Part shown: positions 1 through 58,810 of the stretch, piece after piece | Layout of the letters: each line of letters starts with the position of its first letter | How positions within the stretch are numbered: position 1 is the first letter of the stretch | Made by a program: the position numbers and the translations under genes | The notes under the pieces: model-generated | Seen by the model: only the letters and a program-made list of their open reading frames with translations | What the model was told of the DNA's origin: nothing | The model's database searches: none | Origin: Squalus acanthias | Taxonomy: Eukaryota | DNA: 64,000 nt | NCBI GenBank assembly: GCA_030390025.1 | Contig: CM059431.1 | Coordinates: 140,928,001 to 140,992,000, forward strand | Direction of reading: 5' to 3'

Positions 1-983
1 GCGGTTCCTGGGGGACAGTCTTGCGACCGGGGAGATGCCCCTCTCTTGGCGAAGGGTAGTTATCGTCCTGCTGCCCAAGAGGGGTGATCTCCGCCTTTTA
101 AAAAACTGGCGCCCGGTCTCCCTCCTCAGCACGGACTATAAAATTTTTGCCAGGGCCATGTCTGCCCGCCTCGGCACCGTGCTGGCCCACATGATCCACC
201 CCAACCAGTCCTACACGGTCCCGGGCCGGACAATCCACGACCACATCCATCTGGTCTGGGACCTGTTCCACCTTTCCCAGAGGGCTGGTCTGTCGGTCGC
301 CTTCCTTTCCCTGGATCAGGAGAAGGCGTTTGACAGGTTGTATCACGAGTATCTTTTCGGAACTCTGCGCGCATTCGGGTTTGGGACACATTTTGTCGCC
401 CGGATCCGACTTCTGTACGCAGCCGCAGAGTGTCTGATTAAAGTTAACGGGTCTTTGACGGCGTCCCATCGCTTTGGGAGGGGGGTTCGTCAGGGATGCC
501 CCATGTCCGGTCAGTTATACGCCGTTTGCGTGGAGCCTTTCCTGCGCTTCTTGCGGAAGAGGTTGTCGGGACTGGCTCTGCAAGGGCTGGCCATGGAGGC
601 CGTCCTCTCGGCTTACGCTGATGATGTGCTCCTCATGGTCACGGATCCCGTCGACTTGTGGAAGATGCAAGAATGCCAGCAGGTTTACTCGGACGCATCC
701 TCCGCCAGGATCAACAGGGAGAAATGTTCTGGACTCCTGGTGGGCCAGTGGCGGGTGGACTCCCTGCCGGAGGAGTTCAGGCCCTTCGCCTGGAGCACAA
801 CGCACCTCCTCTACTTGGGAGTCTACCTCGGCCCTGCCGAGGATACCTGGCCGGTGAACTGGCAAGAGCTGGAGGCCAAAGTCACCGCTCACCTAGGACG
901 CTGGACGGGCTTGCTCCGAGTGTTGTCCTACAGGGGTCGAGCGCTGGTCATAAACCAGCTGATGGCCGCCATGTTGTGGTACC
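1..983 (+). mobile_element. Tx1-like non-LTR retrotransposon ORF2 (RT domain), 5' part, interrupted by a Gypsy insertion
   Basis: ORF 35-991 has the non-LTR RT motifs NWRPVSLL, SLDQEKAFD, GVRQGCPMS and AYADD. Reading resumes after the insertion as MLWY|RLVTLIPP. Confidence 0.9.
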
Positions 984-1198
984 TGTCATAAATCGCAAGT
1001 AACAACTCAGGAAGTACTTCTGGGCGGCCAGCTGGGGCGCCGTCCAGGGAGTATAAATACTCAGGCATGGGCCCACCTTGGGCAGAGACAATCTGGAAAC
1101 AGGAAGCTAGTGACTGCTAACTGGACCTCCATGTTTTGTTACAAGTTGATTAAAGCCTTGCTTTATGTTCAAGTGCGTAGTGAGTCTTTATTACGTCA
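984..1198 (+). repeat. Gypsy 5' LTR
   Basis: TGTCATAAATC...TTACGTCA. TATAAA at 1052-1057 and ATTAAA at 1149-1154. Repeated at 5280-5494. Confidence 0.95.
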
Positions 1199-1298
1199 AT
1201 TTAATCAACTTGATATCGTCTCCACGCTTTGGGTGATTCGGAACAACCAGCTGCAACTCGAACCACAGAAGGGAACTAGGGCAAGAAACTGATCCATC

Positions 1299-2699
1299 AT
1301 GGAAAAACTCCTTAGACCCGCTCGTCTCGACCTGGACCCGAATGCACCTGCGGCAGCAAAGGTATGGAAGCATTGGTTTCGTACCTTTAGCAACTTTCTT
1401 GAAGAATGTGGGGCGGATGTCCCTAATAAGTTACGAATGCTTATCAACTACGTGTCTCCTCATGTGTATGATTATATTGAGGACTGTATAGTCTATGACA
1501 CTGCTATCGAAATCTTACAGCAGCTATATGTCAAGTCCCCAAATGAAATATTTGCTCGACACCTACTGGCCACAACTCGGCAGCAGCCTGGGGAATCACT
1601 CGATGAATTTCTCCAGAAACATCGCAGGCTCAGCAAGGATTGTAACCTTAAAGCAGTTACAGCTGAACAGTATCAAGAGGAACTAATCCGCGATTCCTTT
1701 ATCAATGGGATCGCGTCCCCTTTTATACGTCAGCGCCTGCTGGAAAATAAAACCCTCAATTTACGGGCTGCTTATGACCAGGCGTGTTCCTTGGACTTGG
1801 CCAAGAAAAATGCAGACACTTATCTCCCACCACGTGCACGGGCGGCGGCTATCTCCTTTAATGAGTCTTTCGGTAGGTCTCGGGCGGATGCCCCCACTGA
1901 TGTTGACTCTACTCTAACGGACGACGACCCTACCCTAGAGGCCTTCGCTGATGACGACCCCGCCCTAGCAGCATCCTGGCAATCAGGAAGAAAGTGTTTC
2001 TTTTGTGGAGGGGCGTGCCATCACAGAAAATTTTGCCCGGCTCGTAATGTGACCTGCAATCATTGCAGCAAGAAAGGACACTTTTCCAAGGTATGCCAGT
2101 CACGGGCCTTTGCTAACAAGAAAGGCCGCTCCTCTAAAGTATACCGGTCGAGAGCTCCTGTTAGCTTCACAGCTGCTATCTATGGAGCTGCTCCTCCCTC
2201 AAGAACTACTGTTAAGGCTACAGTTGCCGAAGGGAAAATTGCCCCTCCTCCCATCACGGCTGTTTTTCCCCAAAGTTTGTTCCATGCAGCCACGAAGGTT
2301 TCAGTAAATGGGCACACTCTAAGCGCGCTAATCGACTCCTGCAGCTCTGACAGCTTCATTAGTAAGCGGGCTGTCAACAGGTTAAAACTGCACATTTATC
2401 CCTCGGACAGGGAGATTGCAATGGCTCTGACGACTCTGACCACCAATTCTTCTGGCTTCTGTCTTGTCAACCTCATCCTCAACGGCCGCATGTATCTCTC
2501 CACCCAGCTCGGAGTACTCGCAAACTTATGCAGCGATGTGCTTCTGGATAGGACTTCCAGAAGCAGCACAAGAAGATCACTTTTGAGTTTGGAGGGTCAA
2601 GGCCAGAGCTTACCATTTCTAAGGTGCCTTTTTGTGCACTCTCGGCGGCCTTACTCGGTGAACCCTCCCTGTTTGCCAATCTTCCCCCCCCCGCTGTAA
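1299..2699 (+). pseudogene. gag: Gypsy gag + aspartic protease (frameshifted near 2550 and at the C9 run 2684-2692)
   Basis: Zinc knuckles CFFCGGACHHRKFC and CNHCSKKGHFSKVC. Protease motif ALIDSCS. The natural continuation DFQKQH...FANL..CKPIATKSRR lies in two shifted frames. Confidence 0.8.
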
Positions 2700-5241
2700 A
2701 CCCATAGCCACCAAATCGCGGCGCTTTAGCCAAGATGATCGAGCGGTTATTGAGGCGGAAATCTCTCGCCTTTTAGTCGACGGTATTATCGAGTCATGTT
2801 CATCTCCCTGGCAGGCTCAGGTCGTCATTGTGAGGAAGCCCTTAAAACAATTTGAAAAACGTCTGTGTATCGATTATTCGCAGACTATTAATCAATATAC
2901 CGATCTGGATGCCTACCCGCTGCCACGCATAGATGACATGGTCAACAACCTTGCCAAATACAAGGTATTCTCGACCTTCGATTTAAAAAGCGCTTACCAT
3001 CAGGTGCCACTGCAAAACTCCGACAAGAACTATACGGCCTTTGAGGCCAATGGTCGGCTTTTTCAGTTTCGCCGCCTTCCATTCGGGGTCACCAATGGGG
3101 TGGCCGTCTTCCAACGGGCCATGGATGGCCTAGTCCGGCAAGAGAACTTGACGGATACCTTTCCGTATTTAGACAATATCACTATTGCCGGCCATGATCA
3201 AAAGGAGCATGACGCCAATCTTCAGAGATTTTTTGACGTACTCCGCCGTCGCCACTTAACGTTAAACGAATCCAAATCGGTGAAGTCGGTGCCATCGGTG
3301 AACATTCTTGGCTACTGGGTGGGCAACGGCGTTATTAAACCGGACCCAGAGCGACTTTGTCCACTTCAGGAGCTCCCTCCCCCGACGAACCTCGGCTCTC
3401 TTCGTCGGGCACTTGGCATGTTTGCTTATTATGCAAAATGGATACCACACTTCTCCGATAAAATACAGCCCCTGCTCCATGCGAAGTCTTTTCCATTGGA
3501 AGCTACGGCTATTTCTGCCTTCAACCTCCTCAAACGACAGTTGGAGAAAGCCACGCTTCGCTCCATTGACGAAAATCTTCCTTTTGTGGTCGAATGCGAT
3601 GCATCGGAGGTGGCGATCTCCGTTACCTTGAATCAAGGTGGCCGACCCGTGGCATTCCTATCCAGAACCTTGCAGGGTAGCGAGCTCCATTACCCCCCCG
3701 TCGAGAAGGAGGCTACGGCCATCATCGAGGCTGTACGCCAATGGGGTCATTTTCTTGCTCGGCGTCATTTTACGCTTATAACTGACCAGCGCTCTGTGGC
3801 CTTCATGTTGGATAACCGGAGGCGCACGAAAATCAAAAATAATAAAATTCAACTCTGGAGGATGGAGCTGGCTGCCTTTGGATATACTATCTGTTGCCGA
3901 CCCGTCAAACAGAACGTGGCCCCAGATAACTTCACACGGGCATTTTGCTCCTCAATGTCAACGTCGACTCTGGCGGATTTGCATATGGACTTATGCCATC
4001 CTGGTGTGACCCGCATGTTGCACTTTGTGCGCTCCAAAAATCTACCATTTTCAACCGAGGACGTAAAGAAAACATGCTCATCCTGTAGGATTTGTGCAGA
4101 ATTGAAACCACAATTCCTTCGCCCATCAGATGGCTTACTCATACATGCAATGCAGTCTATGCAGAGGCTCAGCTTAGACTTTAAAGGGCCATTGCCTTCG
4201 TCGACAAGGAACACCTACCTACTTACGATGGTGGACGAGTATTCACGCTTTCCCTTCGCCTTCCCCTGCCCTAATATGCTTACCTCTACGGTAATTAAAT
4301 GCCTCGATCAGGTCTTTTCCCTTTGCGGGACGGCCAATTTTATCCACACTGATCGGAGTCCCTCCTTTATGTCGAGTGAACTTAAAAGTTACCTCTCCCA
4401 ACGGGGAATCGCCTCAAGTAGGACGACACCATATCACCCAATCGGTAACGGACAGGTTGAACGATACAATGCCATCATCTGGAACGCTGTCCGTCTGGCA
4501 CTAAGGTCACGCAACCTACCGGACCAGCAGTGGGAAACGGTGCTCCCCGACGTGTTACACTCTATCAGGTCTCTTCTCTCCACATCTACTAATGTCACGC
4601 CTCATGAGCGATTCTTCAAATTCCGGCGTCGCTCTACACATGGGACGTCTCTACCATCATGGTTGGTGGCTCCAGGCCCGGTGCTACTCCGGAGGTTCGT
4701 CCGGTCTGCCAAAAACGACCCTCTCGTTGACGAGGTGGAGTTAACGGAGGTAAACCCCACGTATGCGCACGTACGGTACCCTGATGGCCGGGAGACCACC
4801 GTTTCGCTCCGAGATCTGGCTCCCTGCCCAACCGGTCACACGGGCCCGAATGATGCAGGATCCCACGACGATGATATCAACACTCCGCACCCCTATGAAA
4901 ATGACGCCCCGCTTGGGACATCGGTGGATCTGCTGGCAATGCTACCGGATCAACTCAGGGAGCTGGATGCTCCCCGTAGGATGGCCACCCGAAACCAGGA
5001 CGCCGGACAATCTCCAGCCACGACTCGGGATCAGGCCAGCTCAGCACCTGTGGGGACCCGCACCCGGAGTCATGATATTCCCAGTCCTCCACAGGATGAT
5101 CAAGATGACGCGGACTCTACTGACTTACCGGTACGGGCCAAGCGACCCAGGGACCAGGATACGGTCCGGGGAGACGTGCCTTCCGGTCACAAGCAGAGAG
5201 CTAAATGTCTGCGGCTATTTCTGGTCCGCCTAGTCCATTAA
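2695..5241 (+). CDS. pol: Gypsy pol (RT, RNase H, integrase)
   Basis: LCIDYS, FDLKSAYHQ, LPFG and YLDN in RT. VECDAS, EKEA and LITD in RNase H. HHCC plus LDF, TD and VER in integrase. Confidence 0.9.
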   Translation, partial: CKPIATKSRRFSQDDRAVIEAEISRLLVDGIIESCSSPWQAQVVIVRKPLKQFEKRLCIDYSQTINQYTDLDAYPLPRIDDMVNNLAKYKVFSTFDLKSAYHQVPLQNSDKNYTAFEANGRLFQFRRLPFGVTNGVAVFQRAMDGLVRQENLTDTFPYLDNITIAGHDQKEHDANLQRFFDVLRRRHLTLNESKSVKSVPSVNILGYWVGNGVIKPDPERLCPLQELPPPTNLGSLRRALGMFAYYAKWIPHFSDKIQPLLHAKSFPLEATAISAFNLLKRQLEKATLRSIDENLPFVVECDASEVAISVTLNQGGRPVAFLSRTLQGSELHYPPVEKEATAIIEAVRQWGHFLARRHFTLITDQRSVAFMLDNRRRTKIKNNKIQLWRMELAAFGYTICCRPVKQNVAPDNFTRAFCSSMSTSTLADLHMDLCHPGVTRMLHFVRSKNLPFSTEDVKKTCSSCRICAELKPQFLRPSDGLLIHAMQSMQRLSLDFKGPLPSSTRNTYLLTMVDEYSRFPFAFPCPNMLTSTVIKCLDQVFSLCGTANFIHTDRSPSFMSSELKSYLSQRGIASSRTTPYHPIGNGQVERYNAIIWNAVRLALRSRNLPDQQWETVLPDVLHSIRSLLSTSTNVTPHERFFKFRRRSTHGTSLPSWLVAPGPVLLRRFVRSAKNDPLVDEVELTEVNPTYAHVRYPDGRETTVSLRDLAPCPTGHTGPNDAGSHDDDINTPHPYENDAPLGTSVDLLAMLPDQLRELDAPRRMATRNQDAGQSPATTRDQASSAPVGTRTRSHDIPSPPQDDQDDADSTDLPVRAKRPRDQDTVRGDVPSGHKQRAKCLRLFLVRLVH

Positions 5242-5279
5242 AGGAAGACTGGACTTCCAAACCTTTTAGGGAGGAAGAA

Positions 5280-5494
5280 TGTCATAAATCGCAAGTAACA
5301 ACTCAGGAAGTACTACTGGGAGGCCAGCTGGGGCGCCGTCCAGGGAGTATAAATACTCAGGCATGGGCCCACCTTGGGCAGAGACAATCTGGAAACAGAA
5401 AGCTCGTGACTGCTAACTAGACCTCCATGTTTTGTTACAAGTTGATTAAAGCCTTGCTTTATGTTCAAGTGCGTAGTGAGTCTTTATTACGTCA
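5280..5494 (+). repeat. Gypsy 3' LTR
   Basis: Direct repeat of 984-1198, preceded by the PPT and followed by the TSD GTACC. Confidence 0.95.
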
Positions 5495-6999
5495 GTACCG
5501 GTTGGTCACTTTGATACCTCCCCCTGCGTTTGTCGCCAAGATACAGAAGATGCTCATCGACTTCTTCTGGGACAAAAGGAAGCACTGGGTCTCTGCCGCG
5601 CTTCTGTGTCTCCCGCTTAGGGAGGGTGGTCAGGCGCTGGTGTGCCTTTGCACCCAGGCAGCAACTTTCCGTCTTCAGACGCTGCAGAGATACCTTTGCA
5701 TCGAGAATCCTCCCAGATGGTGTGCGCTGCCGATGTATTTCTTCCGCCAGATGCACGGTCTCAACTATGACATGCAGCTCCTGTTTGTGGAATTGGGCCG
5801 CACGCGAGCCTACCTGTGGGAGCTGCCTGTCTTCTACCAGAAACTGCTATGGGTCTGGAATCAAGTCGCCTCCAGGCGGAGTTCTCTCCGGTCAGGAGTG
5901 GCGGCTCTCCTTCGGGAGACGCTGCTCAGGAATCCTCACCTCCACGTCCGACGGATCGGCTGGCTGGTGGAGGGCAGGGCTGTGCCTGGCAAGGTGACCA
6001 GAGTCGGGGACCTGCTCGATGGCGGAGGAGCGGGCTGGATGGCGACAGAGGAGTTGGCGTGGTGCCTCTCGTGTGTTGACATCTGGCGCGTGACCAAAGC
6101 CATCGAGTCGCTGAAAGTGGCACTGGGCCCAGACTCCACTAGGTGTATCGAGGAGGCTCAAGCACGTGGGGCGATCCCGTCCGAACTGACCTCCGTTCGG
6201 ACGGAATTCCTCATCGGCGCGCGGCCCCGAAACCCCTCTCGGGAACCGGCGCCTCACAAATTGAGCCGTCTCGGGGAAATGCCCTCCGTGCCCTTTAGTT
6301 CTGCATGGAGGGGTTTCCTGTACGGGCTGCTCCTGCACACTTTCCACTTTGTCATCTTCGCCTGCCGTCCGGACATGCCTTGGCATGCCATCTTGCCGTC
6401 CATCAGAGGCGAAGGTCCCTAATGGAGGGCTCTCTACACGGGAGTCCTCCCCTTTTCTACTGGGGACTTGTCCTGGTTGCTGTTGCACGGAGCAGTCCCG
6501 TGCAATCAGTTTTTAAGTAGGTTCACAGACTCCCAGGCCACCTGTCTTTTTTGCTGCCTTGAGGAGTCCATGTTCCATGTGTACGTACAATGTGAGAATA
6601 TTTGAAGGGGCTGCTCCTTGCTTTTTGGTTGCACTTCAGTCCCACGCTCCTGATCTACGGTCACCCGGTGCGGAGGGGAGAGGGCTGGTCAGAGGACCTC
6701 CTCGTAGGACTGCTCCTGGGCCTGGCCAAAGTGGCCATTAACTGGTCCAGGCAGCGGGCGGTCGAGGGGGTCGTTCGGCGCAATTGCCTGCCTCTCTTCC
6801 GCAGCTATGTTCGCGCCCGGGTGGCCTTGGAGATGGAGCACGCGGTGTCCGCCGGCACACTCGAAGCCTTCCGAGACCGGTGGGCGCCGCAGGGACTGGA
6901 GTGCATCGTCTCCCCGGACAACGTTATTTTAGTTTAATGAGATAAGTTTCATTTGAAATTTTGTTAATTTAAAGTAGTTTTATGTTGACTCAAAAAGAG
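5495..6999 (+). mobile_element. Tx1-like ORF2 C-terminal part and 3' end (decayed)
   Basis: Continues the upstream frame (YRLVTLIPPP...FFWDKRKHWV). The decayed C-terminal Cys/His region near 6480-6600 contains stops. AT-rich 3' end. Confidence 0.85.
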
Positions 7000-24956: not shown

Positions 24957-25178
24957 CATGATGCGGAGATGCCGGTGTTGGACTGGGGTGAACAAAAGTG
25001 AGAAGTCGCACAACACCAGGTTATAGTCCAACAGTTTTATTTGAAATCAAAGCTTTTGGAGCTTCTGCTCCTTCGTCAGGTGAAGATTTCACCTGACGAA
25101 GGGGCAGCAGCTCCGAAAGCTTGTGATTTCAAATAAAACGTGGACTATAACCTGGTGTTGTGCGACTTCTCACTTTTG
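24957..25178. mobile_element. Palindromic Penelope-derived mini-element
   Basis: Inverted arms of about 90 bp (24993-25178). 12-bp TSD ACTACTAGTCAT at 24945-24956 and 25179-25190. Same sequence as the Penelope 3' end at 53286-53412. Confidence 0.85.
25089..25126 (+). ncRNA. Minimal type I hammerhead ribozyme motif
   Basis: TCAC-CTGACGA-A-GGGGC(AGCA)GCTCC-GAAA-GC-TT-GTGA. Confidence 0.7.
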
Positions 25179-56274: not shown

Positions 56275-58810
56275 GACCCTGGCCAGCCTGCAGAGGGATG
56301 ACTGCCGTGTTGGAAAATTAAACCAAAAATACTCTTTTCTGTACCGTATCATTTCACTTTGTGGACTACAGAAACAGGCTTTCTATTCTGCATCTGCCTT
56401 TTGATTTAATGTCTCGCTCTGTCACTGGCTGTCTGTCGGTCTGTCTCTAACTCACATACTCTCCCTCCCATCCACATTGAACTAAAACTTACAGTGACAT
56501 TACTCACGGACTCACACAAACTCTGAATTTGCAGAAACACAGACACCCACTCACATACAGACTCACTCACACAGACACTGCAATTTGCAGAAACACACAC
56601 TCATACATCCATTTTGAAAGGGGTGCAGCCCGGGTGTGTTAATTTTTGATGATGTCCCTTCCTGGCTGTGTGGCCATGTTTGATGAGGGCAATCCAACAG
56701 GAAGAATTGAAGCCGAGGCCCCAGAAATCCGGGTCCCTGAGAGGAAATGAAAGCCCAGAGGATGAAAGGAAGGAAATAAAATCAGGAAGAAATAATAATA
56801 TATATACTTTGCTTTTATAAACGAAATGGCTGCCTGTCTGTCACTTGAGTGGACTGGAATAAAATGAAGGAAAATATCCCAGAGCAGCTTTTACTGTCGG
56901 ACAGTCCACAAAGACATTTTTCAGTATCTCACTGACTGACTCTCTGTCTTGAAATGAAGTGAAATAAAGTGCAATGAAGTGATACACAGCAGCATTACAT
57001 GTGGAGCAGGCCAGAAGGAAATCAATAGGGTTTAATACAACAACAGCAGGTAATAAGACACCAGACAGACACAAACACGAGCTTCTGCCCACTCTCTCTC
57101 TCTCACACACACACTCCCAGCCTGGCCAGCCTGCAGAGGGATGACTGCCGCATTGGAAGATTAAAACCAAAAAGACACTTTTCAGTATCTTATCTTTTCA
57201 CTTTGTGGCCGACAGAAACAGGCTTTCTATTCTGCAACTTGCCTTTTGATTTCATGTCTCTCTCACTCTCACGGACTGTCTGTCTCTCTGTCACTCACAC
57301 AGTCTCCCTCCGACCCACATTGAATTAAAATTTACAGTAACATGACACACACACTCACACAGACGCTGCAATTTTAAGACTCACAGACACCCACGCATAT
57401 ACAGACACACTCACACAGACTCTGCAATTTGCAGAAACACAGACACACACTCATATACATGCACACTCAGACAGACACTGCAATTTGCAGAAACTCACAC
57501 TCACACACACATCCATTTTGAAAGGGGTGCAGCCTGGGAGTGTCTATTTTTTATGATGTCCCTTCCTGGCTCTGCGGCCATGTTTGATGAGGACAAGCCA
57601 ACCGGAAGAGGTGAAGCCAACGCCGCAAACATCCGGGTCCCCAAGAGGAAATGAACGACCGGGAGTGTGAAAAGAAGGAAATACAATCAGGGATAAATAA
57701 TAATATATCTACTTTACTTTTGTTAACTAAATGTCTGCCTGTCTGTGATTTGCGTGGAAAGGAATAAAATGAATGGAATGATCCCACAGCAGATTTTGCT
57801 CTGAAAACACCCCAAGCCCATTCCCCAATAAACGCCAGTCCCGAAAAATATGAAATGGATTATGCTGAAAATACTTTAAAAAATCAATAATATATATATA
57901 CTTTGTTTTTACAAAAACTTGACTTGGTTTGGTTGGGTTGGGCTTAATGGTAGAGTAAGATCCCACCACAGGATATGCTCTGAAACACCCCACAAAAACT
58001 CCACCATAAAGTCCAGTCCAGAAAAAATCAATTGGCTTGAATTATATATGTAGCTTTGATTTTTACAAAAGTCTTGAAATAAAGGCAAAGTTAGATCCCA
58101 CAGCATTGCAGTCTGGAATTAATTCAGTATGATCTAATGGTGTATCCTTCCTCTTTTTTTCAGACATGAGATGCAATATCAATGCACACAGCTTGAACTC
58201 AGTCAAGCCCTATATATACACCCGCATTTGCTGTCTCTCTCTCTCTCACACACATACACACACACACACACACAGGCCAGCCTGCAAAATTGCCACACAA
58301 CACTCTCAGCAATTAAAGAAAGTTAATTTCTCTCATTGCTCTGCTGTGTTCGGCAGTTTAAAAGCAAAAATACACTTTTCAGTATCTTATCTTTTCATTT
58401 TGCGGCCTACAGATACAGGCTTTTTATTCTGCATCAACCGCAAAATACTGCTGATGCTGGAAATGGGAATAAAAACTGAAAATGCAGGAAATACTCAGCA
58501 GGTGATTCAGCATCTGTGGAGAGAGAGAGAAACAGAGTTAACGTTTCAGCTCGATTACCTTTCGTCAGATTCTGTCAAGGTTCTGAGGAAAGGTCATCGA
58601 CCTGAAACATTAACTCTGTTTTTCTCTCTCCGCAGATGCTGCCTGACCTGCTGAGTATTTCCAGCATTTTCTGTTTTGATTTCTATTCTGCATGTTGTCT
58701 TGATTTCATGTGTCTCTCTCGCTGCCTGCCTGTCTGTCTGTCTTGTCTTGATTTGTGAGGAGGGAAATTAGAAGAATGCAAAGATCCCACATCAGCTTTT
58801 TACTGTCAGA
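54880..58810. repeat. Complex diverged tandem duplication (about 2.8-kb period with an internal repeat of about 0.85 kb)
   Basis: About 54900-56035 matches about 57680-58810, and about 55960-56780 matches about 56850-57680. Both long copies include a palindromic Penelope-end element (about 55666-55910 and 58440-58680). Confidence 0.8.

Follow-up and report, generated by a model that had tools for sequence, protein, structure and literature searches.

Covarying complementarity between the LTR and the adjoining leader points to self-primed reverse transcription in a clade of animal Ty3/gypsy elements

A Ty3/gypsy retrotransposon of Squalus acanthias carries, in the place behind its 5' LTR where a tRNA-type primer-binding site (PBS) would be sought, an exact complement of a segment of its own LTR, and relatives from other animals preserve this complementarity through compensatory changes. 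The complementarity, its position, its covariation and the absence of a tRNA-type site are all direct observations. The start of the complement two positions past the terminal CA of the LTR (CA+2), the polarity of the pairing, in which the LTR segment has its 3' end towards U5, the lack of a TGG site and the covariation together argue for self-primed reverse transcription. It is therefore highly probable that these elements form a widespread clade of small animal Ty3/gypsy retrotransposons (~4-4.5 kb, LTRs of ~125-230 nt) that prime themselves and are not primed by a host tRNA. The original prediction of self-priming, made from this one copy, thus appears strongly supported by the comparison of relatives, which keep the pairing and show no tRNA-type PBS.

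The window, that is, the whole 64,000-nt stretch analysed (assembly GCA_030390025.1, contig CM059431.1, positions 140,928,001 to 140,992,000), contains a complete LTR element at 984-5494 (Table 1). Its LTR ends, target-site duplication, polypurine tract and domain order (Pfam: Asp protease, RVT_1, RT_RNaseH, Integrase_H2C2, rve) identify it as a Ty3/gypsy (Metaviridae) LTR retrotransposon, and the closest solved relative of its Pol is the Ty3 Gag-Pol/RT (E = 1.9e-53). The Pfam scan found no chromodomain (PF00385) in the window pol, in agreement with the original prediction, and none appears in the precomputed Pfam lists of relatives among the 120 matches listed. The reading frame of the window copy shifts between protease and RT. 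Tracts like GGGGAGAA, resembling the polypurine tract of the window, lie upstream of the 3' LTRs of relatives. The element is inserted in a LINE reverse-transcriptase frame (2-991 and 5495-6422; Pfam RVT_1, E = 1.9e-34) that resumes beyond the insertion, and contigs from three runs carry the LINE sequence unbroken (loose ends at 983/984).

Table 1. Features of the retrotransposon in the window
Feature	Position	Strand	Remark
5-bp target-site duplication GTACC, left copy	979-983	+	direct reading; right copy 5495-5499
5' LTR, TG...CA, 215 nt	984-1198	+	direct repeat of 5280-5494, 98% identical
TATAAA, candidate core promoter	1053-1058	+	GGGCGG box upstream at ~1023-1028; read from sequence
5' arm, candidate self-primer CAAGTTGATTAAA	1142-1154	+	exact reverse complement of 1200-1212
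Small hairpin CTTG...CAAG directly 3' of arm	1157-1173	+	minimum-free-energy fold
Second predicted hairpin, U5-side part of loop	1175-1196	+	minimum-free-energy and centroid structures
Single spacer A between LTR terminal CA (1197-1198) and slot	1199	+	A in 11 of 11 LTR-aligned elements
Primer-binding slot TTTAATCAACTTG	1200-1212	+	exact complement of 1142-1154
gag frame: two CCHC knuckles and aspartic protease	1299-2699	+	Pfam scan
pol frame: RT, RNase H, integrase (zinc-binding domain and core)	2662-5241	+	Pfam scan
Polypurine tract AGGGAGGAAGAA, adjoining 3' LTR	5268-5279	+	direct reading
3' LTR, TG...CA, 215 nt	5280-5494	+	arm copy at 5438-5450, without complement downstream

The exact reverse complementarity between the LTR segment (hereafter the arm) and the sequence behind the LTR (the slot), on which the original prediction was built, was confirmed both by direct reading and by a motif search of the window. 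Three details given with it were likewise borne out: the slot begins one nucleotide after the 5' LTR, the arm ends exactly on ATTAAA (1149-1154), and the TATAAA placed ~85 nt before the arm lies 89 nt before it. No other canonical poly(A) hexamer occurs in this 3' part of the LTR. Pairing stops at both ends of the 13 positions, with A facing A at 1141/1213 and G facing A at 1155/1199. With at most one mismatch allowed, the 13-mer has three matches in the 64-kb window, one in each LTR and one on the minus strand at the slot, against an expected count of 0.18, and three matches were reached in none of 100 shuffles. The 13-nt arm/slot duplex has an energy of -13.3 kcal/mol, and the stem is present in both the minimum-free-energy and the centroid folds of 1085-1300, where it spans a loop of 45 nt and encloses the two small hairpins of Table 1.

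Two further perfect inverted repeats were noted elsewhere in the window. One, of 12 nt (AAACAGAGTTAA / TTAACTCTGTTT, 58530-58621, 68-nt loop), lies in an apparent short interspersed repeat; it was considered as a second self-priming element and rejected, being part of an unrelated repeat. The other, of 16 nt (GTTTTATTTGAAATCA / TGATTTCAAATAAAAC, 25034-25139), has a 74-nt loop.

The family of the window element is young and very abundant in its host. A DNA search of the 3.7-Gb assembly with the LTR and leader as query gave at least 1367 first-look candidate copies; all 40 of the DNA-search copies that were scored are 99-100% identical, and the stretch from arm to slot is identical to the letter in the 16 loci compared, out of 30 fetched, the other 14 being minus-strand. 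In the protein search, a single open frame of 1315 codons was intact in 31 of 51 scored genomic copies. The uniform slot, the near-identity of the copies and the intact frames indicate that the family has recently undergone massive multiplication with exactly this slot. A second, more divergent lineage was not detected in the host genome when the shark relative protein P0076 was used as query, which returned only the same family at 61% identity. Read depth over the LTR (984-1198) is ~5-10 times that of the internal region in contig runs X1 and X2, and several-fold higher in X1, X2 and X9 taken together, a pattern that looks like DNA with solo LTRs and suggests that the window family has left many of them. 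From the one raw RNA run compared (X15, from another organism) no read could be placed.

Relatives of the window Pol at 55-83% identity were found in shrimp, a copepod, a soft coral, sea anemones, a tunicate, mussels, a catshark and a stingray, besides many further assemblies. Metagenome contigs were scanned with an alignment of 37 relative proteins, which gave 69 loci; the elements used in the comparisons below have 43-75% Pol identity and were taken from metagenomes and, as contaminant contigs, from bacterial bins. The viral contigs scanned held no relative of the window element. The RT motif, which is normally YxDD, reads YLDN in the window copy (~3170-3181, pol residues 169-172) and in 32 of the 37 aligned relatives, the remaining five having D in the last position; among 120 fetched proteins, 71 have Y-x-D-N, five have Y-L-D-D and 44 match neither pattern. 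YLDN is an odd motif for an RT family that is evidently active.

Many metagenome loci lack a readable 5' junction, and in the stem search the gag start was located and only the sequence upstream of it was considered. Of the metagenome loci, 27 had both a located gag start and 120 nt or more upstream of it, and 22 of these carry a perfect stem, 10-19 nt long. Its 3' arm directly follows ...ACA+A, and its 5' arm lies within the LTR, 24-68 nt farther upstream. The stem was decayed in L046 and L068, the latter still matching at 14 of 16 positions in a copy with LTRs 94% identical to each other, and no stem was seen in L047, L080 and L085. L043, L045 and L078 are three further cases of LTR/slot pairing. 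An unbiased scan of 611 kb, taking in the loci and the window, asked for perfect inverted repeats with arms of 11 nt or more and loops of 20-75 nt; it returned ~55, and ~23 of them are the LTR/slot pair. In an independent set, contigs from bacterial bins, four elements (L122, L124, L125 and L126) each have a pair of 14-15 nt. Seven contigs filed under bacterial metagenome-assembled genomes (L122-L128) encode this animal retrotransposon family and are most likely host DNA that was mis-binned.

For 11 elements the LTR ends could be set from LTR/LTR alignment alone, and in all 11 the slot starts at CA+2. The complement anchored at this point within the element's own LTR is 12-14 nt long in eight of the 11, the three exceptions being decayed copies, against a median of 5 when the slot is compared with the LTRs of other elements, a length that corresponds to a shared TTTAA core. 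L044, L040 and L095 represent a metagenome family that is only 55-58% identical in Pol and yet shares its exact 13-mer arm and slot with the window element; L039, a close relative of that family, departs from it by one compensated pair.

These data bear on the possibility that the slot binds a host tRNA, or a fragment of one, that resembles the LTR arm by chance, a reading that we consider nearly excluded. Internal tRNA fragments or half-tRNAs do serve some LTR elements, according to the accessible part of PMC6317226, yet the slots here vary among relatives of different sources and always match their own LTR, and a TGG-type tRNA site is absent from every slot in the relatives and the window, none of which begins with TGG. 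ARAGORN detected no tRNA in the window and Rfam gave no match for 900-1400. A search of the 13-mer against host tRNAs had been proposed along with the original prediction; a search confined to S...M flank contexts gave 32 genomic occurrences of the 13-mer in contexts other than the LTR or the slot, and the ten of these that were fetched lie in no tRNA.

Covariation was analysed in 18 distinct elements whose arms align without gaps, giving 13 pairs and 234 cells. Under a shuffle control that overstates independence, the 18 elements sharing descent, 97.0% of the 234 cells were paired versus 77.1% in the shuffles (observed level reached in 0 of 500), compensatory cells numbered 42 versus 10.2 (0 of 500), changes on both sides were seen in nine of the 13 pairs (3 of 500), and the covariation score of the 13 pairs was likewise reached by no shuffle in 500. 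When the partner was slid by 1-3 columns, pairing fell to 19-50%, and RNAalifold, working from the alignment alone, returned exactly these 13 pairs. Several stem columns show three pair types and close relatives differ by single compensated pairs, as between L039 and L044, where one base differs in the arm, in both LTRs, and the matching base differs in the slot. Compensatory change across family members, which the original prediction had put forward as a check, is therefore present.

The variation is not spread evenly along the stem. The inner five pairs, ...(A/T)TAAA with TTTA(A/T)..., are almost invariant, whereas the outer pairs vary freely, and the outer ends mostly begin with T. Towards the loop, the conserved feature of the arm is its ending in ...TAAA with RCC behind it and not the poly(A) signal itself, and in ~12 of the 16 elements folded a small RCC...GGY hairpin sits at or next to this junction. 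A U5-IR stem-loop is reportedly found in Tf1. On the other side of the fold, many relatives, including L093, L037, L042 and L039, have a slot that overlaps the gag ATG or stops 0-5 nt short of it; the distance is 86 nt in the window copy and 1-34 nt in most relatives. The stem would accordingly cover the context of the start codon in many of these elements.

The position of the poly(A) signal relative to the stem differs among elements. Among 21 distinct elements, ~12-13 have AATAAA or ATTAAA as the end of the arm, and the others have GTTAAA, TTTAAA, AATTAA or (A)GTAAAA there. In the window copy and in L031, where only 24 nt separate arm and slot, the arm hexamer is the only candidate signal; families with GTTAAA or TTTAAA have a separate hexamer in the loop (AATAAA in L036, ATTAAA in L033, GATAAA in L034), so pairing of the poly(A) signal is not universal. 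Retroviruses with a poly(A) signal in R have to pass over it at the 5' end, and the signal can be masked by RNA structure; the HIV-1 poly(A) hairpin and promoter proximity are known forms of this control. Unlike these, the complement described here lies outside the LTR, and for this reason only the 5' copy of the signal could be hidden; the effect is a candidate one and not clade-wide. The occlusion switch that the original prediction attached to the fold-back is supported only in part: in the window copy and most relatives the fold-back may dampen premature polyadenylation in the 5' copy only, the hexamer ending the arm there, while the rest lack it and several of them have a separate hexamer in the loop. 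We regard a true occlusion effect as plausible but less likely than not. The overlap of arm and hexamer may reflect occlusion, or the constraint that even a very short LTR must retain an R that can be used, reaching from the cut to the poly(A) site, or closeness to the cap.

The overlap with the hexamer would also suit a fold-back whose role is purely structural or regulatory, with something else acting as primer; it might mask the poly(A) signal of the 5' copy, gate gag translation or serve in dimerisation or packaging. The slot adjoining or overlapping the gag ATG in many relatives fits such a role too, and the arms could equally pair between two RNA molecules. A regulatory complement could, however, sit anywhere past the LTR, yet it starts at CA+2 in every independently bounded element, exactly where minus-strand synthesis must begin; none of these LTRs is followed by an alternative TGG... 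PBS, and pairing is kept also where the arm has no canonical hexamer. We therefore consider a purely regulatory fold-back improbable and favour self-priming.

Self-priming would proceed as follows. An LTR-derived RNA stretch of 12-19 nt (in the window, the arm of Table 1) would fold onto the slot behind the 5' LTR, and a cut, made by the RNase H of the element if the analogy with Tf1 holds, would open the RNA at the inner end of the duplex, between ...TAAA and RCC. The freed 3' OH would prime minus-strand DNA into U5, the minus-strand strong-stop DNA would span the loop only (45 nt in the window), and the first transfer would rely on the sequence from the cut to the poly(A) site. The primer would later be copied in turn by plus-strand strong-stop DNA, and a change in the arm would enter the slot within a couple of replication rounds. 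If the standard scheme applies, this rewriting of the slot by primer copying would explain both the perfect pairing in young copies and the frequency of compensatory changes. We infer the cut, the identity of the primer, the transcription start and any effect on polyadenylation by analogy with known elements; the conserved ...TAAA|RCC junction and the hairpin directly behind it are the only hints at the RNase H cut site that the sequences offer. The RNA's own 3' end was considered as the primer and rejected, because the hexamer must precede the cleavage site and the tail could not pair. One contig (L045) ends exactly at the inner end of the arm; that this might mark the end of an RNA was considered and then dropped, a break in the assembly being the probable cause.

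The position of the primer within the RNA depends on where transcription starts. In the window, the GC box and the TATAAA at 1053 suggest a start near 1084, which would place the arm ~58 nt inside the RNA, whereas Tf1 has it at the 5' end. The primer would then carry a long unpaired 5' tail, an obstacle to the second strand transfer if no second cut is made and no other start is used. By the logic of copying, the 5' end of the primer should match the outer end of the complementarity, and this speaks for transcription starting at the stem or for a second cut. Self-priming could then follow Tf1 strictly, with the RNA starting at ~1142, the primer being the 5' end of the transcript, the TATA at 1053 being irrelevant or serving a different RNA, and the hexamer overlapping the primer, both needing proximity to the cap. 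Under the replication scheme, plus-strand strong-stop DNA would copy the primer to its 5' end and complementarity should stop there; stems do end sharply, at family-specific lengths of 10-19 nt, and the 24-nt gap between arm and slot in L031 is in keeping with a very short R-U5. Also in favour of this arrangement, no TATA is conserved among the relatives at 80-90 nt before the arm; a conserved one at ~30 nt was likewise looked for and not found. The window copy, however, lacks a TATA or clear initiator ~30 nt upstream of the arm, and the first base of the stem is T in most families, T being an unusual first base for a polymerase II transcript. On balance, a start at the stem seems to us quite possible, falling somewhat short of an even chance.

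We consider it rather unlikely that the fold acts as a three-way switch, in which an internal, hexamer-bearing segment would pair with the slot, silence the 5' poly(A) signal and gate gag translation, with two cuts freeing the primer; the gating of translation is suggested by the slot adjoining the gag start codon in most relatives. If such a switch existed, self-priming would be independent of the RNA 5' end, unlike in Tf1.

By description, the window clade resembles in size, LTR length and hosts the Steamer and Steamer-like elements (Mag lineage of Ty3/gypsy) known from bivalves and further marine animals, which according to the accessible parts of PMC8905726 and PMC11046912 are ~4.5-5 kb long, have LTRs of 150-220 bp, a single gag-pol frame and two zinc knuckles, and live in marine metazoans. 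In the same excerpts the Steamer PBS is of tRNA-Leu type (TGGTGTCAGAAG, PMC8905726), in contrast to the window slot TTTAATCAACTTG, and MchSLE1, a Steamer-like element, has a tRNA-Asn site (PMC11046912); a Steamer-type tRNA PBS was not found behind the 5' LTR of the window element. Steamer-like elements are also described there with a YxDD box, whereas the clade mostly has YLDN. Some relatives have 3' LTR termini (e.g. CTACAACA) that look like AYANAACA, the Mag C motif of Table 3 in PMC3601003, a weak hint of kinship. In the literature searched, most subscription journals excepted, neither the PBS of this clade nor self-priming among Mag/SURL-like elements was found to be described.

Outside this group, a PBS has been predicted from complementarity to the element's own LTR for the Tcn1 chromoviruses and the TAR Ty1/copia elements of plants and fungi, which differ from the clade in belonging to other superfamilies or lineages and to other hosts, and for which the accessible part of PMC6317226 reports no link with a poly(A) hexamer. 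In the literature searched, as far as its sources were accessible, self-priming is experimentally documented only for fission-yeast Tf1 and predicted mainly for chromoviruses and one plant copia lineage. Measured against these sources, three things appear new: the clade itself, the ...TAAA|RCC junction that it conserves, and a primer arm overlapping the poly(A) signal. A chromodomain-less Ty3/gypsy clade with a Tf1-like logic and unusually clean covariation, spanning cnidarians, crustaceans, molluscs, tunicates and cartilaginous fish and very successful in one large animal genome, would mean that independence from host tRNAs is commoner among animal retroelements than is assumed by annotation pipelines that look for tRNA sites. 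Self-priming may also help these elements to move between distant hosts. Their matched primer/slot pairs constitute a natural series for studies of primer excision, and the hexamer overlap raises the idea that one RNA fold may couple priming with the choice between 5' and 3' poly(A) sites.

The closest parallel in priming logic is Tf1, whose PBS is complementary to its own LTR-derived upstream RNA and which is self-primed by fold-back, as described in the accessible parts of PMC7175516 and PMC4600332. According to the same excerpts, Tf1 and Tf2 of Schizosaccharomyces pombe, Tj1 of S. japonicus and the Tf1/sushi group likewise have the complement of their own LTR in place of a tRNA site (PMC7175516, PMC4600332). 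The likeness would extend to the cut at the inner end of the duplex that gives the primer and to the further hairpins between primer and PBS (PMC7175516, PMC4600332). The clade differs from the Tf1/sushi chromoviruses in having no chromodomain, so that it is likened to them by priming logic, and in its stems of 10-19 nt, whose inner end is ...TAAA|RCC and usually a poly(A) hexamer. Whereas the Tf1 primer lies at the RNA 5' end in the accessible descriptions, that of the clade may be internal, and its hosts, in contrast to those of Tf1, are marine animals, including one with a vertebrate-sized genome of 3.7 Gb.
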